DNA of 64,000 nucleotides, taken from contig JAFAEX010000136.1 in the NCBI GenBank assembly GCA_023423795.1, positions 451 through 64,450 of the forward strand, read 5' to 3'. The stretch's first letter is position 1. Every line of letters starts with the position of its first letter. Both the position numbers and the translations under genes were made by a program. This DNA comes from Chloroflexota bacterium. GTDB lineage: Bacteria > Chloroflexota > Chloroflexia > Thermomicrobiales > UBA6265. The notes under the pieces were generated by a model, which saw only the letters and a list, made by a program, of their open reading frames with translations, had not been told where the DNA came from and searched no databases. Shown here one piece after another: positions 1 through 38,870 of this stretch.

Positions 1-1
1 G

Positions 2-1468
2 CTCACCACAAAACCGGCGCCGTCGGCCGCCGCGGCCGCGGCGCAAGCCGGGGCGCTGCTGCCGCTGCCGGACATCGGTCGCCTGTCGTACTACGACCAC
101 GTCGCGCCCGATGCCGACGAGCTGCGCCAGAAGGCGAAGCGGATCGAGGAGACGCTGGCCAGCTTCCGGGTCGAGGCCCGGGTGCGCGAGGTCAACCCCG
201 GACCGACCGTCACCCAGTTCGCGCTGGAGCCGGGGGTCGGCATCAAGGTCCGGCGCATCACGGAGCTGCAGAACGACCTCGCGCTGGCGCTAGCCGCCCG
301 GTCGCTCCGGATCGAGGCCCCGGTGCCCGGGGCAGCCCGGGTCGGGCTGGAGATCCCGAACGACCACGTCACCACCGTCGGCCTGCGCGAAACGCTGGAG
401 TCACCGGTCTTCACCCGCGGCAAAGCCAAATTGCCGATCCCGCTCGGGCAGGACGTCAACGGCCGCTACGTCGTCGGCGACCTGACGAAGATGCCCCACC
501 TGCTGATCGCCGGGGCAACCGGCGCCGGGAAGAGCGTCTGCCTCAACTGCATCATCTCGACGTTCCTGCTGACGAGGACGCCGGACGACCTGAAGCTGAT
601 CATGATCGACCCCAAGATGGTCGAGTTGACCGGCTACAACGGCGTGCCCCACCTGCTGGCCCCGGTCGTCACCGAGATGGACAAGGTCGTCGGCACGCTG
701 CGGCAAACGCTGCGCGAGATGGAGCGGCGCTACGCCCTGTTCGCCCAGCTCGGGGTGCGCAACCTCGACGGCTACCGCGAAAAGGTCGCGGACGAACCCG
801 GCGCGGAGCGCATCCCGTACCTCGTCGTCATCATCGACGAGTTGGCCGACCTGATGATGACCGCGCCGGACGACGTCGAGGGGCTGCTGGTGCGGTTGTG
901 CCAGATGGCGCGCGCCACCGGCATCCACCTGATCATCGCTACCCAGCGGCCGTCGGTGGACGTCGTCACCGGGCTGATCAAGGCCAACGTGCCGAGCCGG
1001 ATCGCCTTCGCCGTCTCGTCGCTGGCCGACAGCCGGGTGGTGCTGGACATGCCGGGCGCGGAGCGGTTGCTGGGCCGCGGCGACATGCTCTATCTGCCGG
1101 CCGACGCCGCCAAGCCGACGCGGGTGCAGGGCGCGTTCCTCGCCGACGCCGACGCCCAGTACATCGTCGAGCACTGGCATTCGGTCTCGCCGGTGCCGCA
1201 GTACGTGCAGGAGTGGCTGGAGCCGCCGGCGTCCGGCACGACGATGGTGGCGGGGGAGGGCGCCGAGGAAGGCGACGACCCCCTCTTCGACGACGCGCTG
1301 GCCCTCGTCCGCTCCCAGCGGACGGCCTCGGCCTCGATGCTCCAGCGGCGGTTGCGCGTCGGCTACAACCGCGCCGCCCGCCTGATCGAGCGGATGGAGG
1401 ACGAGGGCTACATCGGCCCTGCCGACGGTGTGCGCGGCCGCCCGGTGCTCTTCCGCGACGACGATTGA
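2..1468 (+). CDS. ftsK: DNA translocase FtsK/SpoIIIE, motor and gamma domains (5' end outside window)
   Basis: The frame is open from nt 2 with no stop. Walker A LLIAGATGAGKS, Walker B VVIIDELADLMM, IIATQRPSVDV, and a winged-helix tail ASASMLQRRLRVGYNRAARLIERME. Confidence 0.93.
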   Translation, partial: LTTKPAPSAAAAAAQAGALLPLPDIGRLSYYDHVAPDADELRQKAKRIEETLASFRVEARVREVNPGPTVTQFALEPGVGIKVRRITELQNDLALALAARSLRIEAPVPGAARVGLEIPNDHVTTVGLRETLESPVFTRGKAKLPIPLGQDVNGRYVVGDLTKMPHLLIAGATGAGKSVCLNCIISTFLLTRTPDDLKLIMIDPKMVELTGYNGVPHLLAPVVTEMDKVVGTLRQTLREMERRYALFAQLGVRNLDGYREKVADEPGAERIPYLVVIIDELADLMMTAPDDVEGLLVRLCQMARATGIHLIIATQRPSVDVVTGLIKANVPSRIAFAVSSLADSRVVLDMPGAERLLGRGDMLYLPADAAKPTRVQGAFLADADAQYIVEHWHSVSPVPQYVQEWLEPPASGTTMVAGEGAEEGDDPLFDDALALVRSQRTASASMLQRRLRVGYNRAARLIERMEDEGYIGPADGVRGRPVLFRDDD

Positions 1469-1517
1469 CGGGCGCGGCGGGGCGCGAAAGTACTCCGTGG
1501 TCCCGTTTTCGGTTTGC

Positions 1518-2516
1518 CTACGGTGCTTCCGCGGAAAGCGAGTGCTCGTAGTCCTCCATGCGGTCGCGCAGCCGGGCAACCAGCCCGTTCATCCAGTCGG
1601 GATGGCCCGCATCCTCGTCGAGGTCGAGCGCCCGCACTATCGAGCCGTAGGTCAGCAGGTTCGCCCACCGCACGAAATGGGACAATGGGCCGGTTGCGTC
1701 GTACGCGCCGGCTGGGCCGGTGGCGGCGCACCCGTCCAGGAACGCGCCGACGATGGGATCTTCCGCGCCCGTGCCGGCGGCGAACCGGTCGCGGAGGGCG
1801 AATGCAGCGTCGGCCAGCCGCCAGCCGCGGGCGCACGCGTCGAAGTCGAATAGTTGGACGGACGAGCCCTGCCAAACCAGGTTGTCGGGTTCGAAATCGC
1901 CATGGATCAAGCCGAACGAACCCGGTTCCTCGGGGAGCGCGCCAAGTAGCGCGGCGACCCCGTCCAGTTCGGCCCGCACCGCATCCGGCCGGTCGTGCAG
2001 GAGCGGTCGCAACCGCTCCAGTTGGTCCCGCCAGGTGGGCCATTGCGCGGCGAGGTCGGGCGGGCAGGCGTCCAGCGCGGCGTGCAGCCGCCCCATCGCC
2101 TCGCCCCATGCCCGCGCCCGCGGCTGGTCGAATCCGTCGAGGTCGAGGACGGTTCCGTTTAGGATGGGGAGGGCCAACGCGTGGAACGTGCCGAGACTGG
2201 TGGTGATGGTCTCGACGGCGCGGCCTTGCAGCGAGGGAAGCGGACTCGGAGTCGGCACGCCCCGATTGGCTAGCCAGGTCATCAGGGCCGCTTCGGCTGC
2301 CAACTCGCCTACGCCGCGCTCGGCGTCGTCGGCGAACCGGAGGACGTACTCGGCGTCGCCGTGGGAAAAGGCGTAGATGACGTTGGCGCTCGACCGGACG
2401 AACCCGAGTGACCCGGCGTCGTGCGGCCAGGCCGACACGATGCGTTCCGCGATCGGGCTGCTGCCGGCGTCGTCGATGGTGCGATCCACGCGAAGCATGG
2501 TGCTCAGGCGCATCAT
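1518..2516 (-). CDS. Phosphotransferase (APH/homoserine-kinase-like) family protein
   Basis: Kinase catalytic motif LIHGDFEPDNLVW. I placed the start at the tandem ATG-ATG (MMRLSTM) preceded by GGGGAG. The longer 395-aa ORF N-terminus looks like non-coding translation. Confidence 0.7.
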   Translation of the reverse strand: MMRLSTMLRVDRTIDDAGSSPIAERIVSAWPHDAGSLGFVRSSANVIYAFSHGDAEYVLRFADDAERGVGELAAEAALMTWLANRGVPTPSPLPSLQGRAVETITTSLGTFHALALPILNGTVLDLDGFDQPRARAWGEAMGRLHAALDACPPDLAAQWPTWRDQLERLRPLLHDRPDAVRAELDGVAALLGALPEEPGSFGLIHGDFEPDNLVWQGSSVQLFDFDACARGWRLADAAFALRDRFAAGTGAEDPIVGAFLDGCAATGPAGAYDATGPLSHFVRWANLLTYGSIVRALDLDEDAGHPDWMNGLVARLRDRMEDYEHSLSAEAP

Positions 2517-2720
2517 CGGCAGCGCTCCCCGGATCGGCGAACCGGCGAACGAGCCGTTCGCCCGCCGAATGCTGCCATGGAAACGACCTGCCCGCGGAGG
2601 CCGGAGATGGATTGGCAAAAAAACCATCGCCCGGCGGACGCCGAATGCGCGACGCCCGGCTCGTAACGGCCGGAACATAGTCTCAACCGCCGCGAACGAG
2701 ACCACTCTCGCGCGGCAGGG

Positions 2721-3032
2721 TTATTCCGCGCCGGCGCCGGACAACGCGCGGGCCTGCCGCTGCCGCCCGAAACAGGCCGAGCAGTAGACCGGGTTGCCGT
2801 TGCGCGGTACGAACGGGACGGACGTCGTCGCACCGCACTCGGCGCAGACGACCTCGGTCTGCGCCCGGTCCTGGATGCCGAGGCGGGCCTTGCGCTGGGC
2901 GCGGCAACCGGGACAGCGGACGGGCAGGTTGACCAGCCCTTTCTCGTGGAAGAAGCGTTGTTCCCCGGCGGTCCAGGTGAAGGGGTGGGAACAGTCCCGG
3001 CACGTCAACGTGCGATCGACGAACTCCTCCAT
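2721..3032 (-). CDS. Zinc-ribbon domain protein (four CxxC pairs)
   Basis: 103-aa ORF with CRDC...CPGC and CAEC...CSAC motifs and high GC3. Confidence 0.7.
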   Translation of the reverse strand: MEEFVDRTLTCRDCSHPFTWTAGEQRFFHEKGLVNLPVRCPGCRAQRKARLGIQDRAQTEVVCAECGATTSVPFVPRNGNPVYCSACFGRQRQARALSGAGAE

Positions 3033-3260
3033 CCGAGTTCCTCGTCCCGCGAACGGAGCCGGACATGGCGGTATCCGCGGCGCACGTCGCCGCGGCGGGG
3101 TGGTGTCCCCGACATTGTCCGATCACGTTGCGTACCGGCAGGGTAATGCTGCTAGCGGCATAGCGCAATAGTTCGGCAGCGGCACCGCCGGTTTTCGCAT
3201 GGAGAAGCGGATTTCCATCGCCCGGGACGGCGGTTTTCGCTCGGTGAAGAGCCCCTGACA

Positions 3261-3269
3261 TGGTAGAAT
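3261..3269 (+). promoter_or_regulatory. Extended -10 element (TGgTAGAAT) upstream of recR
   Basis: TGGTAGAAT lies 58 nt upstream of the recR ATG. The -35 is weak. Confidence 0.4.
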
Positions 3270-3326
3270 TGGTCATTCGCCAGGGTCCCGGCCGCGCGCC
3301 CGGACCCCGCCCCGGAGCCTTCCAGC

Positions 3327-3944
3327 ATGACCGCATCCCCCCCCGGGTCGGGCGCCACCGCGCAGCCGGTGGCGCGCCTGATCGACGAGTTCGCCAAACT
3401 GCCCGGGATCGGTCCCAAGACCGCCTCCCGCCTCGCCTACTTCCTGTTGCGCGCTTCCCGCGAGGACGCCACCGGGCTGGCCGAAGCCATCCTCGAAGTC
3501 AAGGAGCGCATCCGGCTCTGCTCGGTCTGCTTCAACACGACCGAATCGGACCCCTGCGCGATCTGCGCCGACCCCCGCCGCGACAAGGCGATCTGCGTGG
3601 TCGAGGAACCGCTCGACGTCGTCGCGCTGGAGCGCACCGGCCAGTTCAAGGGCCGCTACCACGTGCTCCACGGCGCGCTGTCGCCGGTGGAGGGCATCGG
3701 GCCGGACAAGCTGAAGGTGCAGGAGCTGCTGGCGCGGGTCCGCACCGAGGACCCGGACGAGGTGATCGTCGCCACCAACCTCGATCTGCCGGGGGAGGCG
3801 ACCGCGACCTACCTTCACCGGCTGCTGGTGCCGATGGGCGTCAACGTCACCCGCCCGGCCTCCGGGCTGCCGGTTGGCGGCGACCTGGAGTACGCCGACG
3901 AAGCGACGCTGGGGCGGGCGCTGGCCGGGCGGCGGGCGATCTGA
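3327..3944 (+). CDS. recR: Recombination protein RecR
   Basis: HhH motif KLPGIGPKTASRLAYFLL, Cys4 finger CSVCFNTTESDPCAIC, and Toprim ICVVEEPLDVVALERTGQFKGRYHVLHG. Confidence 0.95.
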   Translation: MTASPPGSGATAQPVARLIDEFAKLPGIGPKTASRLAYFLLRASREDATGLAEAILEVKERIRLCSVCFNTTESDPCAICADPRRDKAICVVEEPLDVVALERTGQFKGRYHVLHGALSPVEGIGPDKLKVQELLARVRTEDPDEVIVATNLDLPGEATATYLHRLLVPMGVNVTRPASGLPVGGDLEYADEATLGRALAGRRAI

Positions 3945-3990
3945 CCCTGTACGGACACAACGATTCGACAACAGTACCGAGACCATTCCG

Positions 3991-3999
3991 TGATACACT
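3991..3999 (+). promoter_or_regulatory. Extended -10 element (TGaTACACT) 8 nt upstream of ATG 4008
   Basis: TGATACACT is followed by ccacccga and then ATG, which implies a leaderless or near-leaderless mRNA. Confidence 0.4.
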
Positions 4000-4007
4000 C
4001 CACCCGA

Positions 4008-5150
4008 ATGATTGAGCACGGCGGTCGCTTCGACGAGTTGAACGCACCGACCCGAGTTGCCTCGCAGCGGCGAGACACCGCCGATTCCCCGCGCAACCCG
4101 GCTCCCGCGGTCTTCCCCCTGCCGAACGGCGGCACGCGGCCGGATTCCCTGCCGGTCACCGTCCGGTACATCCGGTTGGGCGACGTTCCCCGCTTGCGCC
4201 GCCTCGATCCGTTGCACATCCTCGACCGGCCGGAATCGACCGTGCAGGGCTGGCGTCCGCTGCGCGGAGCGCTCGCCTCGGCGACCCCCGGCGGGCGCGA
4301 TCGCCGCCCCGCCTTCGTGGTCGAGGCCGGCGATCGCCTGGTCGGCTATGCCCGGTTCCAGACCACCGCGCCGGACGGACGCTGGACCCTCGTCGCGCTC
4401 GGCGCGGCGATGGGCGTTTACGACGCCGAGCCGGTCTGGGAAGCGCTGCTTTCGACCGCCGTGCGGCAGGCGGGGCTGCGCGGCGTCCGCTCCCTGTTCG
4501 CCCGCATCCCGTGGGGCGTCGGCGCGTCGCCGCTGATGTCCCGCCTCGGCTGGCAGCCCTACGCCACCGAAACCCTGTTCCTGGCCCACGACGTGCGCGG
4601 CGCGTGGCGGGACGCGATGCGCCCACGGCCGATGAAGGTGAGCGACACCTGGTCCGTCCACCAACTCTACGCGGCGGCCGTGCCGACCGCCGTCCAGCAG
4701 GCGGAAGCGTTCACCAGCCGCCGCTGGGAAAGCGCGGCCCGCGGCGCGAAGGGCCGTTCGGCCGGGCTCCTGTTCGAGGACGGCCCGCATCTGGTCGGTT
4801 TCGCCCGCGTCACGACCGGGCCGGGTGGGCGGGCGCTGGACGTGCTCGTCCACCCGGAACGGCGCGAGGTGGCGGGACGTATGCTCGACGGCGCGCTGGC
4901 GGCCCTCGCGCCCGGCGGCGGGCGGATCTGGGCGACGCTTCGCGGCTATCAGGACGAACTTGCCAGCCCGTTGCAGGACCGGGGATTCCAGCCGGTCTTC
5001 GAGCAGGAACTGTTCGTGCGTTACACCACGGCACGGGTGCGGCAGCCCGCCCCCGAGCCCGCTCCCTTCGCGCTGGACGTGCGCGAACGGGCGGCCCGGC
5101 AGGTGCCGTCGTTCCTGGCCGGCGCGCCGGACGACCGGACCGCGCCATGA
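4008..5150 (+). CDS. Hypothetical protein, possibly a tandem GNAT-like acetyltransferase fold
   Basis: Long high-GC3 ORF with two repeated halves (…LVGYARF… and …LVGFARV…) resembling GNAT beta4-alpha3 segments. Its stop overlaps the next start (ATGA). Function uncertain. Confidence 0.5.
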
Positions 5151-7078
5151 GCGAAGGAGGGCCCACTGACGGGCAGGAACCCGACCGCGCTCCCGCCGGA
5201 ACGTTTCCGGGGGAGGGGCGGATCGCGAGACATTTCGGGGAGGACCGACGGTTGAGCAGCATGCCGCAGGAACGACCTCCAGTCTACGACCGGCGAGACT
5301 ACGAACTGGAGATCACCGACAACCTGGAGGATTTGCTGGCAGTACTCCCCCCGCACGTACTCCAGGGCATCGCCGACCTTTCCGCCGCGGGCGAAACCGG
5401 CCTGGTCGAGATCGTCCTCGATCTCGGCCGGCTGCCGGAGGCGCGCCTGCAGGACGGCGAGGTCATGCTTTCCGACCGCGAAATCACGCGGGAGGACCTC
5501 GCCTGGGTCGCCGACCGCATCGGCGCATTCGGCGACGACAACCGCGCTGGCATCGAGCGCACGCTGCACCGCATCTCGGCCATCCGCAACCGGTCCGGCG
5601 AAATCGTCGGGCTCACCTGCCGGATCGGCCGCGCGGTGTACGGCACCATCGCCATCCTGCGGGACCTGATCGAGTCGGGCGAGAGCGTGCTCCTGCTCGG
5701 CCGGCCGGGCGTGGGCAAGACGACGATGCTGCGCGAAACGGCCCGCGTGCTGGCCGACGAACTGCGCAAGCGGGTGATCGTCGTCGATACCTCCAACGAG
5801 ATCGCGGGCGACGGGGACATCCCGCACCCGGCGATCGGCCGCGCCCGGCGGATGCAGGTGCCGACGCCGACCGCCCAGCACGGGGTGATGATCGAGGCGG
5901 TCGAGAACCACATGCCGGAGGTCGTCGTCATCGACGAGATCGGCACCGAACTGGAAGCCCTCGCCGCGCGCACCATCGCCGAGCGTGGCGTCCAGCTCAT
6001 CGGCACCGCCCACGGCAACAGCCTCGAAAACCTGATGATGAACCCGACGCTGTCGGACCTCATCGGCGGCATCCAGTCGGTCACGCTCTCCGACGAGGAA
6101 GCGCGGCGGCGGGGCACCCAGAAGTCGATCCTCGAGCGCAAGGCGCCGCCGACCTTCGGAGTGATGGTCGAATTGATCAGCCGCGACGAGGTCGCCGTCC
6201 ACACCGACGTCGCCGCGACGGTGGATGCGATCCTGCGCGGGCAAACCCCGCGCACCGAGGTCCGCCACCGCAACGCCGACGGGCAGATCGCCATCTCGGC
6301 GCTCAACCCGCGGCTCGATCCACGGCCGGGCAACGGCGGTCCGCGCCGGGACGAACCCCGGCGCGGCGTGGTGGACATCGCCTCGCGGCAGGCGGCGCGC
6401 GCCGCCGGGCGGCCGGAGCCCATCCGGTCCGAACCGCTCCCGTCGCCCCAGGCGGAGCCGGACGAGCGCTTCATCGCGGATTTTCCTGAACCGGCGCCCG
6501 GCTTGCCGCGCGGCCGGGGCACCGAGGGCAAGCCGCTTCGGGTGTACCCCTTCGGCGTCAGCCGGAACCGCCTCGAAGAAGCCATCGGGCAACTCGGCGT
6601 GCCGGCGACCGTCGTCCGCGACGGGCGCGACGCCGACCTGGTGATGACGCTCAAGAACTACTACCGGCGCAAGCCGCAGCCGATCCGCGAGGCGGAAGTG
6701 CGGGGAACGCCGGTCTACGTCCTGCGCGCCAACACCGGCGTCCAGATGGAGAACGTGCTGACGGGGCTCTTCCCGCGGGCGGCGCAACGCGCCGGCGTCG
6801 GGGCACGCGGCGCGGTCGCCGAAGTCGTGGAAAGCGACGAGGACCGCGAAGCGCGGCGGGCCCGGCGCGGCGACGACGCGGTGCTGGCGGCCCTTTCGGA
6901 AGCGGAAGACGCCATCGGCAGCGTGCTCGGCGGCGGCCCGGCGATCGCGCTTGCCCCGCAGGACCCGCACATCCGGCGGCTCCAGCACGAACTGGCCGAG
7001 CGGTACAACGTCGCCTCGCGCAGCCGGGGCCGGGAGCCGCACCGCCGGGTCGAGTTGTACCGGGACGGGGTGCGCTAG
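5147..7078 (+). CDS. AAA ATPase with C-terminal R3H domain (SpoIIIAA/Ycf45-like)
   Basis: P-loop [16 protein letters not shown], Walker [10 protein letters not shown], and a C-terminal R3H-like [29 protein letters not shown]. The start is either the ATGA overlap at 5147 or ATG 5261. Confidence 0.8.
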
Positions 7079-7083
7079 GAGGC

Positions 7084-7758
7084 ATGACCGGCGCATTCAT
7101 CGTCCTCGAAGGTCCGGAGGGAGCGGGCAAGAGCACCGTGGCCCGCTCCCTCGTCGCCCGCCTGCGCGAGCAGGGCCGGGAGGTCGTCGCGACGCGCGAA
7201 CCGGGCGGAACCGAGATCGGCGAGCGCATCCGCGGCCTGATCCTGGCCACGGATGCGCATGCTATGCTCCCCGCGACCGAGGCGCTTCTGTACGCGGCGG
7301 CGCGCGCGCAGCACGTCGGCGAACTCATTCGCCCGGCGCTGGAGCGCGGCGCGGTCGTGGTGTGCGACCGCTTCGTCGATTCGTCGCTGGCCTACCAGGC
7401 GGGCGGGCGAGGACTGCCGCTGGCAGAGGTGCAGGCGATCCAGCGGTTAGCGCTCGACGGGCTCGAGCCGGATGTGCGCATCCTGCTCGACCTGCCGGTC
7501 GGGGAGGGGCTCGCCCGGCGGTTCGGTTCCGACGAAGCACCGAACCGGCTCGACCTGGCCGACGTACCCTTTCACGAACGGGTGCGCGCGGCCTACCATG
7601 ACCTCGTCCGGGCCAGCCCCGGGGCGTGGGTCGCGATCGACGCCCGGCAGTCTCCGTCGGCGGTCGCCGAAGCGGCCTGGCAGGCGGTGGAACGCGCACT
7701 CGCGGCGCCACGCGGCCGTGTGCCGATCGAGCGGGAGCAGGACGGACACCCCGGATGA
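7084..7758 (+). CDS. tmk: Thymidylate kinase
   Basis: FIVLEGPEGAGKST P-loop, TREPGGT and DRFVDSSLAYQ. Confidence 0.95.
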   Translation: MTGAFIVLEGPEGAGKSTVARSLVARLREQGREVVATREPGGTEIGERIRGLILATDAHAMLPATEALLYAAARAQHVGELIRPALERGAVVVCDRFVDSSLAYQAGGRGLPLAEVQAIQRLALDGLEPDVRILLDLPVGEGLARRFGSDEAPNRLDLADVPFHERVRAAYHDLVRASPGAWVAIDARQSPSAVAEAAWQAVERALAAPRGRVPIEREQDGHPG

Positions 7759-23720: not shown

Positions 23721-23734
23721 CGAACGTTTGTTCG
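23721..23734 (+). promoter_or_regulatory. LexA (Cheo-type) box CGAACGTTTGTTCG in the ruvB promoter
   Basis: Perfect CGAAC-N4-GTTCG palindrome overlapping the -35/spacer region of the ruvB promoter. Confidence 0.6.
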
Positions 23735-23742
23735 GAGGCCGC

Positions 23743-23751
23743 TGCTATACT
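23743..23751 (+). promoter_or_regulatory. Extended -10 (TGCTATACT) for ruvB, 6 nt before the ATG
   Basis: TGCTATACT-tcaccc-ATG, which implies a leaderless transcript. Confidence 0.5.
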
Positions 23752-26754: not shown

Positions 26755-26788
26755 TCGCAGCCGTTTCGATCCAAACAGAGCAGACGCG

Positions 26789-26823
26789 GGAAGCGGGAAG
26801 GCCAATTCGGCCTTCCCGCTTCC
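26789..26823. terminator. Bidirectional terminator between the PPIase gene and the 68-aa ORF (convergent)
   Basis: 15-bp stem GGAAGCGGGAAGGCC / GGCCTTCCCGCTTCC with a 5-nt loop. T-rich on the plus flank (ATTGTTGGGTTTTCC). Confidence 0.75.
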
Positions 26824-26846
26824 GCATTGTTGGGTTTTCCCGAAAC

Positions 26847-27053
26847 CTACGCGGCGAGGTCTTGCCGCTCGTCGCACAGGGTTTCGTATTCGCGCAGGAG
26901 GTCGATCCAGAACGCTTCCCAGCGCTCCACGTCCTCCCCGGCCAGCGCCGCGGCGTCGATCCGCTGCCAGCCGTCCTCGAGCCGCCGGGCGAGCACGTCG
27001 CGCCGGTCCTCGATCCGGGCCACCCGCGTGGCCAGGTCGCCGAACTCGTCCAT
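26847..27053 (-). CDS. Small acidic helical protein, unknown function (second gene of the SOS-box module)
   Basis: 68-aa ORF with high GC3 and SD GGAGGA 5 nt before the ATG. It lies 48 nt downstream of the 214-aa gene. Confidence 0.65.
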   Translation of the reverse strand: MDEFGDLATRVARIEDRRDVLARRLEDGWQRIDAAALAGEDVERWEAFWIDLLREYETLCDERQDLAA

Positions 27054-27101
27054 CGTCGTCCTCCACCGCGGCCCGCTTCGGCCGCGCGTTCGATCGCGCC
27101 G

Positions 27102-27746
27102 CTAGGACGCCAGTTCCGCGCCCTGCCGCCGCGCCTGCAGCCGCTCGATCAGCGCCGAGGCGTCGCGGCGGGTGATCTCCTCCAGCCGCACGCCGAAGAG
27201 GTGCTTGACCTCGTCGTCGATGTCGCTGGGGGAGAGGCCAGCCTCGCGGGCGATCGCCTGCACGAAGCGGATCTGGCGCTGGGTCGCCGGCTGGTTGAGC
27301 TGCGCCGCCGGCGCGGGCCGCTCGTGCTCGTCGATGTGGGTCACCGGGGCGAGCCGCCGGCCGCGGGTGGCGTTGAAGTCGATCGGGGCATCGACCACCT
27401 GTGGGCGGCGCGCCCCGGCGCCGAAGTCGAAGTCCGGGCAGAACTGGGTGCCGAACCCGAGCGCGGCCAGCGCGCGGCCGATCGCCTTGGTTTCGGCCTT
27501 CTCGATGTAGTCGCGGAAATCGTCCGGCCCTTCGCTGCCCCACCCGGTGGCGGAGCCGCCGCCGGGGACGGTCACGGTGGCGCGGAACACGGCCAGCGAC
27601 CCGTCGTGGCTGACCATCTCGGTCTCGATCGACGCGTCGGGGTGGGTCTCGCGCAGCCAGACCAGCCGCCACTTGACCTCGAGATAATCCGCCCCGCCCA
27701 CTTTGGTGAGGTAGCGGCTGGGCTCGAATGCTGCGTTGGCGGCCAT
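27102..27746 (-). CDS. Putative Rad52/Sak-like single-strand annealing domain protein with a C-terminal helical domain
   Basis: High-GC3 ORF with SD AGGAG. N-terminal domain YLEVKWRLVWLRETHPDASIETEMV…GWGSEG…DYIEKAETKAIGRALAALGFG, whose final helix resembles the …KRA..FGLG helix of Rad52/Sak/DdrA. The functional call comes from motif memory only. Confidence 0.4.
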   Translation of the reverse strand: MAANAAFEPSRYLTKVGGADYLEVKWRLVWLRETHPDASIETEMVSHDGSLAVFRATVTVPGGGSATGWGSEGPDDFRDYIEKAETKAIGRALAALGFGTQFCPDFDFGAGARRPQVVDAPIDFNATRGRRLAPVTHIDEHERPAPAAQLNQPATQRQIRFVQAIAREAGLSPSDIDDEVKHLFGVRLEEITRRDASALIERLQARRQGAELAS

Positions 27747-27761
27747 CGGACACTCCTGTTC

Positions 27762-27775
27762 AGAACGCTTGTTCT
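27762..27775. promoter_or_regulatory. LexA-type operator AGAACGCTTGTTCT (perfect GAAC-N4-GTTC) at about +1 of the minus-strand promoter
   Basis: The palindrome lies between the -10 (27784-27789) and the SD (27755-27759) of the 214-aa gene. Confidence 0.55.
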
Positions 27776-27783
27776 AGGATTGG

Positions 27784-27812
27784 ATTGTACCCGTTTAGAA
27801 CAAATGTGTCAA
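27784..27812 (-). promoter_or_regulatory. Near-consensus sigma-70-type promoter TTGACA-17 nt-TACAAT
   Basis: The minus strand reads TTGACA (27812-27807), the 17-nt spacer catttgttctaaacggg, then TACAAT (27789-27784). The spacer holds a GTTC half-site. Confidence 0.7.
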
Positions 27813-35405: not shown

Positions 35406-38400
35406 GTGTCCGAGTTCGCCCACCTTCACCTGCACACCGAGTACTCCCTGCTCGACGGCATGGGGCGGACCGCCGAATACGTCGCCCGCGCCAAGGAGAG
35501 CGGCATCCACCACCTCGCGGTCACCGACCACGGGGTGATGTACGCCGCGATGGAGTGGCACAAGGCCCTGTCCAAAGCCGGGCTGCACCCCATCATCGGC
35601 ATCGAGGCCTACCTCGCCGAGGGCAGCGCCCGCGCCCGCGAGCGCAAGAGCTACCACCTGCTGCTGCTGGCCGAGAACGAGACCGGCTACCGCAACCTGC
35701 TTCGGTTGTCGTCCCGCGCGATGCTGGAGGGCTACTACTACCGACCCCGGATCGACCTCGACATGCTCGCCGAGCACCACGAGGGCATCGTCGCCACCTC
35801 GGCCTGCCTCGGCGGCCCGGTCGCCAACAACTTCCTGCACGGCCGGCCGGAGCTTGCGCGCGACTACGCCGGCAAGCTCGCCGAGATCTTCGGCCGGGAC
35901 CGCTTCTTCATCGAAGTCCAGGACCACGGCATCCGCGAGCAGATCGAGACCAACCGCGAACTCATCCCGCTGGCGCGCTCGCTCGACCTGCCGCTGGTCG
36001 CCACCAACGACGTCCATTACTGCAACCAGGCCGACGCTGCCGCGCAGGAACTGCTGGTCTGCGTGCAGACCAACACCACGCTCGCCGACCCCAAGCGGCT
36101 CAAGAGCGAATCGGACCAGCTCTACCTGAAGAGCCCGCAGGAGATGGAGCGCGTCTTCGGCCACCTCCCGGAAGCCCTCTCGAACACCATCCGCATCGCC
36201 GAGATGTGCAACCTCGACCTCGGGTTCAAGGGCTACCACCTGCCCGATTTCCCGGTGCCGTCCGGATTCACCCACGAGGGCTACCTCGAGCACCTGTGCC
36301 GCGAGGGCGTGCGCCGCAAGTACGGCCACGACGACGGCGCGGTCGGCGAACGGCTCGCCTACGAACTCGGCGTCATCAATTCGATGGGGTTCACGAACTA
36401 CTTCCTCGTCGTCTGGGACTTCGTCCGCTTTGCCAAGGAGAACGGCATCCTCGTCGGCCCCGGACGCGGCTCGGCGGCGGGCAGCATCGTCACCTACGCG
36501 CTCGACATCACCGCGCTCGACCCGCTCAAGTACGACCTGATCTTCGAGCGCTTCCTCAACCCGTCGCGCATCTCGATGCCGGACATCGACATCGACTTCG
36601 CCGACGACCGCCGCGCCGAGGTCATCGAATACGTCGTCAACAAGTACGGCGACGACCGCGTCGCCCAGATCGTCACCTTCGGGACGCTCGCGGCGAAGGC
36701 CGCCGTGCGCGACGTCGGGCGCGCGATGGGCCGCACGTTCGCCGAAACCGACAAGGTCGCCAAGCTGATCCCGGTCGGCCCAGGCATCACGATCGAATCG
36801 GCGATGACCAAGGTCCCCGAGCTGAAGGCGCTCTACGACGGCGACGCCGACGTGCGGGAATTGATCGACTCGGCCAGGAAGGTCGAGGGCATCTCTCGCC
36901 ACGCGAGCACCCACGCCGCCGGCGTCGTCATCTCCCGCGACCCGCTCGTGCACCACGTCCCGGTGCAGCGGGCGGGCGGCAAGAGCGAGGGCGAACTGAC
37001 GACCCAGTTTCCGATGGGGGAACTGGAAGCCCTCGGCCTGCTGAAGATGGACTTTCTCGGGCTGAAGACGCTGACGGTGCTGGGCAAGGCGGTGGACCTG
37101 CTGCGGGCCGACGGGCACGACATATCCCTCGAAACGATCCCGCTGGACGACCCAAAGTCCTACGAACTGCTCTGCCGTGGCGAGACGGTCGGCGTGTTCC
37201 AGCTGGAAGGCGGCATGACCACCCGGATGACGGTGGACGTCGCGCCGAACTGCTTCGAGGACCTGATCGCGCTGATGGCCCTGATCCGGCCCGGGCCGAT
37301 GGAGATGGCGCCGGACTACATCGCCCGCAAGCACGGCCGCACCGAGATCGTCTACATGCACCCGGAAATGGAGCCGATCCTCGCCGAGACGTACGGCGTG
37401 GCGCTCTACCAGGAGCAGGTGATCCGCATTGCCAACGTGCTGGCCGGTTTTTCGATGGCCGAGGGCGACGGGCTGCGCAAGGCGATGGGCAAGAAGCTGC
37501 CCGAGGAAATGGCGAAGTACCGCGACCGCTTCGTCAGTGGCGCGGTCGAGCACGGCCTGCCGAAGGGGCTCGCGGGCGACATCTTCGACACCATCGAGCG
37601 GTTCGCCGGCTACGGCTTCAACAAGGCCCACAGCGCCGCTTACGCCGTGATCGCGGCGCAGACGGCCTACCTCAAGGCGAACCACCCGGTCGAGTTCATG
37701 GCGGCGCTGCTCTCCTCGGAAATCGGGAACACCGACAAGCTGGTGTCGAACGCGGCCGAATGCCGGCGTGTCGGCATCCCGCTCATGCCGCCGTGCGTCA
37801 ACAGCAGCGGCGTCGAGTTCACCGTGGAACGGGTCGAGGACGGCAGGATGGGCGTGCGCTGGGGCCTCGGCGCGGTCAAGAACGCGGGTGAAGGGGCCGT
37901 CCGCGCCATCCTTGCCGCGCGCTCGGAGCGGCCGGGCGGCGCGTTCCGGTCGCTCGACGAATTCTGCGGGGAAATCGACTGGCAGGTGGTGAACCGGCGC
38001 GTCGCCGAATCGCTGGCCAAGTGCGGCGCGCTCGACTGCTTCGGCGCGCGCGGCTCCGTCATCGCCGGTCTGGAAACGGCGATCGCCGCCGGCCAGAAAC
38101 GGCAGAAGGCGTCGGCGCGCGGCCAGATGGGGCTGTTCGCGATGGGCGCCGAAAGCGAGGTCAGCGCGCCGACGCCGCTGCCGCCGGCCACCGTCGCCGA
38201 CAAGCAGTTGCTGGCGTGGGAAAAGGAGTTGGTCGGCTTCTACATGAGCGCCCACCCGCTGCAGGAAATCCTGGCCAGCGCGCCGCAGCGCGGACTCGCC
38301 AGCATCGTGGATCTCGCCGAACGTCCGGCGGGGCAGATCGTCCGCACGATCGCGATGGTAACGTCGGTGCGGCGGATCACGACCCGCACCAATCGCTCGA

Positions 38401-38870
38401 TGGCCGTTGCCGAGATCGAGGACCTCACCGGCACGATCGAACTGGTCGCCTTCCCGGACCTTTTCGAGCGGATGGGGGAGGCGCTGCAACCGGACGCGAT
38501 CCTCGAAATTTCGGCCAAGGTGGACCGGCGAAACGAGCAGGTGCAACTCGTCTGCGAATCGCTCACGGCCGAGCTGTCGCTGCCGGCTCCGGAACTTCCC
38601 GTGCGCACGGTCCACCTCGCGCTGAACCCGGGCGAGGATCGCTGGCAGGATATGGAACTGATGAACGGGATCGACTCCGTCCTCCGCGAGTTCGAAGGCG
38701 ACGACGTGCTCGTGCTGCACGTCCCGCACCGGGGTGGGCGCCGGGTCCGGCTGCGGTCGCGCTCGCGGCGGGTGCACTGGTGCCCGGAACTGGCCAGCGC
38801 GCTCGGCCAGCAACCCGGCGTGGCCAAGGCGTTCGTGGAGGAGCCGGCGCCGGTTCGCCTCGCGTCCTGA
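35406..38870 (+). CDS. dnaE: DNA polymerase III alpha subunit
   Basis: PHP domain HLHLHTEYSLLDG, catalytic GPGRGSAAGS, MPDIDIDF, and an OB-fold C-terminus. 1154 aa. GTG start after GAGGAG. Confidence 0.97.
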   Translation: MSEFAHLHLHTEYSLLDGMGRTAEYVARAKESGIHHLAVTDHGVMYAAMEWHKALSKAGLHPIIGIEAYLAEGSARARERKSYHLLLLAENETGYRNLLRLSSRAMLEGYYYRPRIDLDMLAEHHEGIVATSACLGGPVANNFLHGRPELARDYAGKLAEIFGRDRFFIEVQDHGIREQIETNRELIPLARSLDLPLVATNDVHYCNQADAAAQELLVCVQTNTTLADPKRLKSESDQLYLKSPQEMERVFGHLPEALSNTIRIAEMCNLDLGFKGYHLPDFPVPSGFTHEGYLEHLCREGVRRKYGHDDGAVGERLAYELGVINSMGFTNYFLVVWDFVRFAKENGILVGPGRGSAAGSIVTYALDITALDPLKYDLIFERFLNPSRISMPDIDIDFADDRRAEVIEYVVNKYGDDRVAQIVTFGTLAAKAAVRDVGRAMGRTFAETDKVAKLIPVGPGITIESAMTKVPELKALYDGDADVRELIDSARKVEGISRHASTHAAGVVISRDPLVHHVPVQRAGGKSEGELTTQFPMGELEALGLLKMDFLGLKTLTVLGKAVDLLRADGHDISLETIPLDDPKSYELLCRGETVGVFQLEGGMTTRMTVDVAPNCFEDLIALMALIRPGPMEMAPDYIARKHGRTEIVYMHPEMEPILAETYGVALYQEQVIRIANVLAGFSMAEGDGLRKAMGKKLPEEMAKYRDRFVSGAVEHGLPKGLAGDIFDTIERFAGYGFNKAHSAAYAVIAAQTAYLKANHPVEFMAALLSSEIGNTDKLVSNAAECRRVGIPLMPPCVNSSGVEFTVERVEDGRMGVRWGLGAVKNAGEGAVRAILAARSERPGGAFRSLDEFCGEIDWQVVNRRVAESLAKCGALDCFGARGSVIAGLETAIAAGQKRQKASARGQMGLFAMGAESEVSAPTPLPPATVADKQLLAWEKELVGFYMSAHPLQEILASAPQRGLASIVDLAERPAGQIVRTIAMVTSVRRITTRTNRSMAVAEIEDLTGTIELVAFPDLFERMGEALQPDAILEISAKVDRRNEQVQLVCESLTAELSLPAPELPVRTVHLALNPGEDRWQDMELMNGIDSVLREFEGDDVLVLHVPHRGGRRVRLRSRSRRVHWCPELASALGQQPGVAKAFVEEPAPVRLAS

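Follow-up and report, generated by a model that had tools for sequence, protein, structure and literature searches.

A probable SOS-controlled operon for a Rad52-like annealing protein and a small partner in Thermomicrobiales

The window analysed here is a 64,000-nucleotide (nt) stretch of a Chloroflexota bacterium (contig JAFAEX010000136.1), and our subject is a two-gene module on its minus strand that lies divergent from dnaN-recF and encodes a protein of 214 amino acids (aa) followed by one of 68 aa. We think that this module is probably a bicistronic operon under LexA-type (SOS) repression that is fixed in Thermomicrobiales and whose products are a Rad52-like single-strand annealing protein (SSAP) and a small partner. 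Comparisons were made across a set of 80 orthologous loci, with one genome per species scanned and about 610 kb in total. Nearly all of these loci come from Thermomicrobiales (including metagenome-assembled genomes, MAGs, of Sphaerobacter and Nitrolancea), with a few from Dehalococcoidia and other Chloroflexota. The module and its expression signals comprise the following features.

27784..27812, minus strand: sigma-70-type promoter, TTGACA (27812-27807), a 17-nt spacer and TACAAT (27789-27784)
27762..27775, no strand assigned: main operator AGAACGCTTGTTCT, AGAAC-N4-GTTCT, a LexA/Cheo-type box
27798..27809, no strand assigned: second, degenerate box ACAC-ATTT-GTTC (two mismatches), which overlaps the -35 and the spacer
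27753..27757, minus strand: Shine-Dalgarno sequence AGGAG of the 214-aa gene, read directly, with the ATG at 27746
27102..27746, minus strand: coding sequence of the 214-aa protein, PF27148 (Slr1353_N), Rad52-superfamily SSAP-like
27059..27064, minus strand: Shine-Dalgarno sequence GGAGGA of the small gene, inside the 48-nt gap between the two open reading frames
26847..27053, minus strand: coding sequence of the 68-aa acidic helical-hairpin partner, from the open reading frame and orthologue comparison
26784..26827, no strand assigned: terminator hairpin, with the small gene and the peptidyl-prolyl isomerase (PPIase) gene converging on it, -42.6 kcal/mol, z = -5.55

The promoter matches the consensus at 11 of 12 positions, where 0.1 such sites would be expected, and it is the sole sigma-70-like site between 26500 and 28200. 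An initial annotation of the window had already proposed this promoter, the two Shine-Dalgarno sequences, the two reading frames 48 nt apart and a terminal hairpin; all of them were found where it had placed them, and folding supported the hairpin, which lacks a T-run and hence was not called by a scan for consensus terminators. On the minus strand the operator reads AGAAC-AAGC-GTTCT, begins 9 nt past the -10 and spans about +2 to +15. What had been described as a perfect 14-nt palindrome is an inverted repeat limited to the 5-nt arms AGAAC and GTTCT, the central 4 nt not being self-complementary, and the GTTC half-site that had been noticed in the promoter spacer (27798-27801) is real and forms part of the degenerate second box. 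The GAAC-N4-GTTC core occurs five times in the window against 0.94 expected, a count that none of 100 shuffles reached, and only two of the five are intergenic, namely the module operator and CGAACGTTTGTTCG before ruvB. Regulation of dnaN by the module box was considered and rejected, as more than 100 nt separate the box from the dnaN -10. The dnaN gene is called from 27836 (417 aa), 24 nt off the module -35, and its homologues align only from about 27960; the annotated dnaN start is probably over-extended.

Among the orthologous loci, the predicted operator is a conserved phylogenetic footprint. At least one exact GAAC-N4-GTTC box lies within 130 nt upstream of the gene in 75 of the 80 loci, and 12 loci carry two boxes. 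The 10,065 nt of upstream regions hold 87 exact boxes, compared with 34 in the other 600 kb; the respective densities of 8.6 and 0.057 per kb correspond to a 152-fold enrichment. A promoter of the form TTGACN-16..18-TANNNT is present in 75 of 81 orthologous upstream regions, and the box begins 7-9 nt past the -10 in 60 of 73 loci. Between the -35 and the -10, 14 loci have an exact second box; the number of loci rises to 28 when one mismatch is allowed and to 39 with two. The orthologue boxes give the consensus (T/C)AGAAC-A-N-A-(T/C)-GTTCTA. Upstream of phage-borne homologues from IMG/VR, the box was found in 0 of 74 loci.

Outside the module, boxes of this type were found at two further promoters of the source contig, which we assign to the same putative regulon.

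23721..23734, no strand assigned: second intergenic box CGAACGTTTGTTCG, at the -35 of the ruvB promoter
L158 1-5409: cassette of imuY-like (IMS, 399 aa), 94-aa and dnaE2 genes, about 1.3-6.7 kb left of window position 1, divergent from ftsK

The box at ruvB, first pointed out in the initial annotation, is not a peculiarity of this genome: of 27 orthologous loci, 22 have an exact box at the -35 position of the ruvB promoter, and another four have a box with a single mismatch. The ruvB -10, TATACT (23746-23751), ends 6 nt before the ATG (23758), with similar spacing in orthologous loci, which suggests that the ruvB mRNA is leaderless. The initial annotation had named the lexA and recA promoters as the test of the motif; as searches of the window and the 80 loci found neither gene, the imuY-like/dnaE2 cassette served as a canonical SOS marker in their place. 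To this end the source contig was followed 6.7 kb past the left end of the window, and a 20.6-kb stretch was examined. The dnaE2 product scored 970 bits against the cut-off of 939 for NF004225, 'error-prone DNA polymerase'; a replicative dnaE is also present within the window (35406-38870). The sole exact box of the 20.6-kb stretch is TAGAACATATGTTCTA, a perfect palindrome at L158 5394-5409, about 75 nt upstream of the cassette. All four further Thermomicrobiales loci that were inspected have a single box in the cassette promoter, which brings the count to five of five genomes including the source. In a Sphaerobacter sp. MAG, a full Y-family polymerase gene (IMS + IMS_C, dinB-like; L163 3051-4342) is preceded at about 100 nt by an exact box CGAACGAATGTTCT and is a probable further member of the SOS regulon. 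Beyond the module and these SOS-gene promoters, exact boxes number only 8 in 610 kb.

The LexA of Dehalococcoides (Chloroflexi) reportedly binds GAAC-N4-GTTC, according to a J Bacteriol study of 2002. The same sequence is the LexA motif in B. subtilis and M. tuberculosis (PMC3323433). Cassettes of the imuA/imuY-imuB-dnaE2 type are under RecA/LexA control in other bacteria, and in the imuY-imuB-C-dnaE2 cassette of Deinococcus the polymerase genes are separated by a small gene (PMC8072749), an architecture that the cassette on the source contig shares. In motif and in overlap with the promoter, the module matches a LexA regulon with a Gram-positive/Cheo-type box, and such boxes are also found here at ruvB, imuY-like/dnaE2 and dinB. 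The recurrence of the motif at these genes argues strongly that GAAC-N4-GTTC serves as the SOS (LexA-type) operator of Thermomicrobiales and that the module would be controlled by LexA. Together with the upstream footprint, it bears out the initial reading of the motif as a LexA operator.

The 214-aa protein and all 120 homologues listed carry the precomputed Pfam label PF27148 (Slr1353_N). This family is named for an uncharacterised Synechocystis reading frame, and its label comes without the SSAP fold, SOS control or partner considered here. At 50% identity it comprises 5590 clusters with E <= 1e-3, of which 2931 reach E <= 1e-10. Three PHROGs families matched, with function not assigned. 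Scans of both module proteins against Pfam, NCBIfam and PADLOC gave no useful match, weak DUF4777 only; no names were returned for ten distant family cluster representatives, and literature searches on the function of PF27148 or slr1353 found nothing. The idea of an anti-phage defence system was rejected; neither protein matched a PADLOC model at E <= 0.1. Across 72 diverse family members, Y21, R27, W30, R32, K83, R91, A92, G97 and G99 are invariant. The AlphaFold model divides the protein into three parts.

27411..27746, minus strand: N-terminal domain, aa 1 to about 112, the Rad52-like core with the signature GWGSEG...EKAETKAIGRALAALGFG
27309..27443, minus strand: disordered linker, aa 102-146, with a predicted local distance difference test score (pLDDT) below 50
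27105..27308, minus strand: C-terminal three-helix domain, aa 147-214, pLDDT 89-94

The predicted core has the topology beta-beta-alpha-beta-beta-beta-alpha (E13-16, E19-22, H24-34, E39-47, E52-60, E64-72, H80-95), with pLDDT 85-91 over aa 31-70. Both AlphaFold models were searched with Foldseek, as the initial annotation had recommended. For the 214-aa protein, the top matches in the PDB were all SSAPs, with probability 1.0 for 8qe9, 9yi9 and RAD52.

80α Sak 8qe9: Foldseek PDB E 2.6e-4
Mgm101 9yi9: Foldseek PDB E 1.8e-3, root-mean-square deviation 4.5 Å over 106 columns
Human RAD52: Foldseek PDB E 2e-3 to 7e-3
Gp77: Foldseek PDB E 1.8e-2

Against BFVD there were 88 matches below 1e-3, including proteins annotated as Sak3, Erf, Rad52/59/22 and 'DNA single-strand annealing protein'; one match was full-length, at E 4.6e-12. 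The likeness to Rad52 and Sak, which had first been proposed from a sequence motif, thus reappears at the level of the predicted fold, and the separate C-terminal helical domain that had been proposed with it corresponds to the three helices after the disordered linker. This C-terminal domain resembles phage Mu GemA and DUF3072 in 11 of 72 relatives: GemA (PF06252) was detected in 6 of the 72 family members and DUF3072 (PF11272) in 5, with best E values of 9e-7 and 3e-6, and the motif in these relatives is ATxRQxxxI...GL...L(S/T)RRDAS.LIxxLQ. The window's own 214-aa protein gave no significant Pfam match to either. Little is established about what GemA-type domains do. Within the linker, the motif VVDAPID (aa 117-123, 27378-27398) is conserved at V118, D119, P121 and D123, the rest of the linker being variable; its equivalent in phage P23-45 is LADSPI, and it may be a linear interaction motif.

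RAD52, Mgm101, 80α Sak, Sak3 and Erf share the predicted N-terminal fold of the 214-aa protein (beta-hairpin, helix, three strands, long helix). The signature G-x-G-SEG ... EKA..T..RAL..G may likewise be common to the protein and the Rad52-superfamily SSAPs, with an invariant Arg that falls at the position of R153 in an alignment short of significance. The 214-aa protein differs from them in its C-terminal three-helix domain and in matching no SSAP profile; moreover, its gene is chromosomal, lies behind a LexA-type box and was probably inherited vertically, whereas those SSAPs are phage-borne or eukaryotic. We conclude that the modelled fold, and probably the signature, are Rad52-like, in a protein that lies outside the Rad52_Rad22 profile.

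The small gene lies immediately downstream of the SSAP gene in 70 of 80 loci (tblastn), in keeping with the dedicated small partner proposed at the outset. Its products are 63-93 aa long with a median pI of 4.65 and share the core motif RLEDGYxRIxxAxxxGxDVxxWExFWxxLLxEYE. From a 4-sequence alignment, the 68-aa protein was modelled as an antiparallel two-helix hairpin (helices 3-37 and 43-67, pLDDT 92.8), for which the Foldseek matches were unspecific hairpins, among them the seryl-tRNA synthetase arm and designed proteins. Pfam, NCBIfam and PADLOC offered no family for it, and a database search gave 4 close matches only. A pattern scan of viral contigs found no homologue of the small protein, and a scan with the copy from viral locus L104 returned L104 alone; a local hidden Markov model search detected a homologue in that locus (E 1.3e-17) and in no other of the 74 viral loci. 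From its motif and its co-occurrence, the small protein is a putative new family tied to the SSAP.

The orthologues of the small protein end in -AA in 52 of 69 cases (window 26847-26855), which is ssrA-like, and the 214-aa protein ends in ELAS (27105-27116), conserved among orthologues as (E/D)(L/I/M)AS. These C-termini may be degrons or docking tails. SOS regulons usually hold a small unstable checkpoint protein (SulA, YneA, SidA), and the 68-aa protein could be such an independent, short-lived effector, inhibiting division, replication or a nuclease and merely sharing the transcript. Its ssrA-like end, acidic pI and lack of detected homologues of known function would fit this role. We nevertheless rate it as rather unlikely, given that the gene directly follows the SSAP gene in most loci and shares a phage module with an SSAP homologue, and that the protein lacks the membrane segment which most small Gram-positive-type inhibitors of division in the SOS response possess. 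The small protein would thus be a cofactor, a regulator or an independent SOS effector.

The genomic context is that of a resident chromosomal operon. All neighbours of the module are housekeeping genes (recF, dnaN, PPIase, queA, ruvB), its GC content of 0.72-0.745 compares with 0.66-0.745 in the surroundings and is thus native, and phage genes directly adjoining it are absent. The order recF, dnaN, module, PPIase recurs in about 60 chromosomal loci. SSAP identity follows DnaN identity with a Spearman coefficient of 0.61 over 59 loci, and orthologues are 56-98% identical with many invariant residues. The initial description of a native, chromosomal module agrees with this synteny and GC content; its statement that phage context is lacking holds for the adjacent genes, whereas the gene itself clearly has phage relatives. 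Thermus phages P23-45, P74-26 and G20c encode a homologue that is 43-44% identical over the N-terminal domain and has the same signature, and phages of Lactobacillus delbrueckii carry the two-domain form. In P23-45 the homologue adjoins genes for a helicase, a Holliday-junction resolvase and a primase. Locus L104 (IMG/VR UViG_3300047409_000390, 3986-7625, high GC) contains, in this order, an SSAP homologue, Phage_rep_O, a Toprim/AAA_25 primase-helicase and the small-protein homologue.

Copies outside the recF-dnaN synteny were found in loci L077 and L078, which are mobile-element-like, and in L074 and L075, which represent other chromosomal contexts. One Chloroflexota MAG, KLAP209, has two copies. 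That at L078 3027-6161 is followed by a Toprim/AAA_25 primase-helicase, lacks the box and looks like part of a mobile element; that at L074 3965-4675 is of the chromosomal type, with a GAACACGTGTTC box within the promoter spacer.

The conserved order and the parallel divergence of SSAP and DnaN point to vertical descent after what would have been a single recruitment. Both genes have relatives in phage replication and recombination modules, which gives the module the appearance of a domesticated phage function; the comparison suggests a recombination function that was placed under host SOS control. The abundance of the family in phages, with 74 IMG/VR loci besides the Thermus and Lactobacillus phages, might instead indicate a decaying prophage remnant without host function. 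This is effectively refuted by the conservation data: synteny is order-wide, orthologues retain high identity and invariant residues, the GC content is that of the surroundings, the adjoining genes are not phage genes, and the module has gained an operator of the host type that is missing from the phage copies.

The company of the phage and mobile homologues, which adjoin replication protein O, Toprim/AAA_25 primase-helicases, helicase and primase genes, also raises the possibility of a replication-restart or replisome accessory that would act at damaged forks together with the clamp or in the loading of helicase or primase. In its sole phage occurrence the small protein is encoded immediately after a primase-helicase, and such a role would explain the fixed site beside dnaN across the order. 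We think it quite unlikely. SSAP genes are often embedded in phage replication modules, so that location is uninformative on this point; a clamp-binding motif was not recognised, and a scan for DnaA boxes showed no cluster at the locus that would mark oriC.

The closest analogue of the proposed function is DdrA, likewise a chromosomal bacterial Rad52-like protein whose regulon includes ruvB; to our knowledge, no other damage-induced Rad52 homologue on a bacterial chromosome is well known. Control of DdrA lies with DdrO/IrrE, which act through the radiation/desiccation response motif, whereas the module operator is LexA-type. It belongs to Pfam Rad52_Rad22 and has neither a small partner nor dnaN synteny, a distinction drawn from descriptions of DdrA. 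In Deinococcus, DdrA (DR0423) is chromosomal, Rad52-like and damage-induced, in a regulon with ruvB (PMC515370, PMC8072749). The lambda Red Beta/Exo/Gam and RecET systems likewise place an SSAP in a small operon with accessory proteins; they have an exonuclease, whereas the module has the 68-aa hairpin instead and stands under a host SOS operator. The C-terminal domain of Redβ is used in partner binding.

Several observations weigh against a LexA-controlled annealing protein with a small partner. Neither Rad52_Rad22 (PF04098) nor any other SSAP Pfam matched the 214-aa protein at E <= 1 or the 72 diverse members at E <= 0.01, and no SSAP was found among PDB sequences by single-sequence and profile searches. 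The whole-chain predicted TM-score (pTM) is 0.43, and TM-scores to the PDB SSAPs are 0.33-0.39, which are low because the protein is built of two domains. When the 72-member alignment was compared by hhalign with a hand-entered human RAD52 sequence, GWGSEG...EKAE-TKAIGRALAALGFG aligned with RAD52 G125...E140-G159, placing EKAETKAIGRALAALGFG, the helix singled out in the initial annotation, on E140-G159 and R91 on R153 within the K152/R153/R156 region of the DNA-binding helix, at a non-significant E of 0.055 and with low probability. An exonuclease partner is absent from the operon and its neighbours (dnaN, recF, PPIase), and DdrA protects DNA ends rather than clearly annealing strands. The contact between the small protein and the SSAP is putative and the fold of the former is a generic hairpin. 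Finally, motif searches of the window and the 80 loci found neither lexA nor recA, and we infer the identity of the repressor from the motif and from the canonical SOS genes that carry it.

In view of the last point, the inverted repeat could be the operator of a regulator other than LexA. We regard this as very improbable, since the established Gram-positive LexA box has exactly this motif (PMC3323433), which stands here at the promoters of ruvB, imuY-like/dnaE2 and dinB, all classical SOS targets (PMC8072749). In a different alternative, regulation is unchanged and the 214-aa protein is not an annealer but a DdrA-like factor protecting ends of single-stranded DNA (ssDNA), or a specialised single-stranded DNA-binding protein. 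This would agree with the description of DdrA as ssDNA-binding (PMC515370, PMC8072749), with one GenBank record that labels the P23-45 homologue 'ssDNA binding protein', and with an operon that has no exonuclease. We consider it unlikely: the best structural matches, Sak, Mgm101 and RAD52, are annealing proteins, and a literature search for an experiment behind the phage label found nothing.

An annealing protein under LexA control would be expected to work as follows. In the undamaged cell, the repressor would sit on the AGAAC-N4-GTTCT box over the transcription start and keep the near-consensus promoter off, in many relatives occupying the second box in the spacer between -35 and -10 as well. 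Upon DNA damage, RecA-stimulated self-cleavage of LexA would release the promoter. By analogy with Rad52, Sak, Mgm101 and DdrA, the SSAP could then form oligomeric rings on ssDNA at breaks and gaps, where complementary or 3' single strands would be annealed or protected, while the VVDAPID motif of the linker and the three-helix C-terminal domain might recruit partner proteins. The co-transcribed 68-aa protein would be a cofactor or regulator of the SSAP, and its -AA C-terminus could lead to its fast proteolysis once the SOS response is off. A more far-reaching version, which we put forward tentatively as plausible and still short of probable, is that the module constitutes a core LexA-induced repair pathway, by annealing or end protection, beside RecA/RecFOR, in which a phage annealase domesticated by Thermomicrobiales and some other Chloroflexota is gated by a new class of short-lived SOS effector of 63-93 aa. 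It would amount to a Rad52-type branch of the bacterial SOS response.

Annealing proteins of the Rad52 type are seen as belonging to eukaryotes or phages, and bacterial hosts normally depend on RecA with RecFOR or RecBCD. We know of no described SOS regulon in which a Rad52-like SSAP and a small partner belong to the core across a whole order. Literature searches found no description of a LexA-regulated Rad52-like gene and nothing on a Chloroflexi LexA regulon or a Thermomicrobiales SOS regulon. The module looks like an undescribed damage-induced repair module, and the comparative data make a solid case for a predicted new SOS member, though not for a new principle. If the proposal is correct, phage annealases have been recruited into the host damage response more than once, Slr1353_N with its thousands of clusters gains a testable function, and a new small protein family becomes linked to DNA repair. 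It would also delineate the SOS operator and part of the regulon of Thermomicrobiales, comprising ruvB, imuY-like/dnaE2, dinB and the module operon, and thermostable annealases of this clade could serve recombineering.

At the left end of the window (1-3944, together with L158), the mutagenesis cassette is separated from the remainder of the window by ftsK, a gene for an APH-like kinase, a small zinc-finger gene and recR. The recR-ftsK-imuY neighbourhood was seen again in loci L161 and L162.

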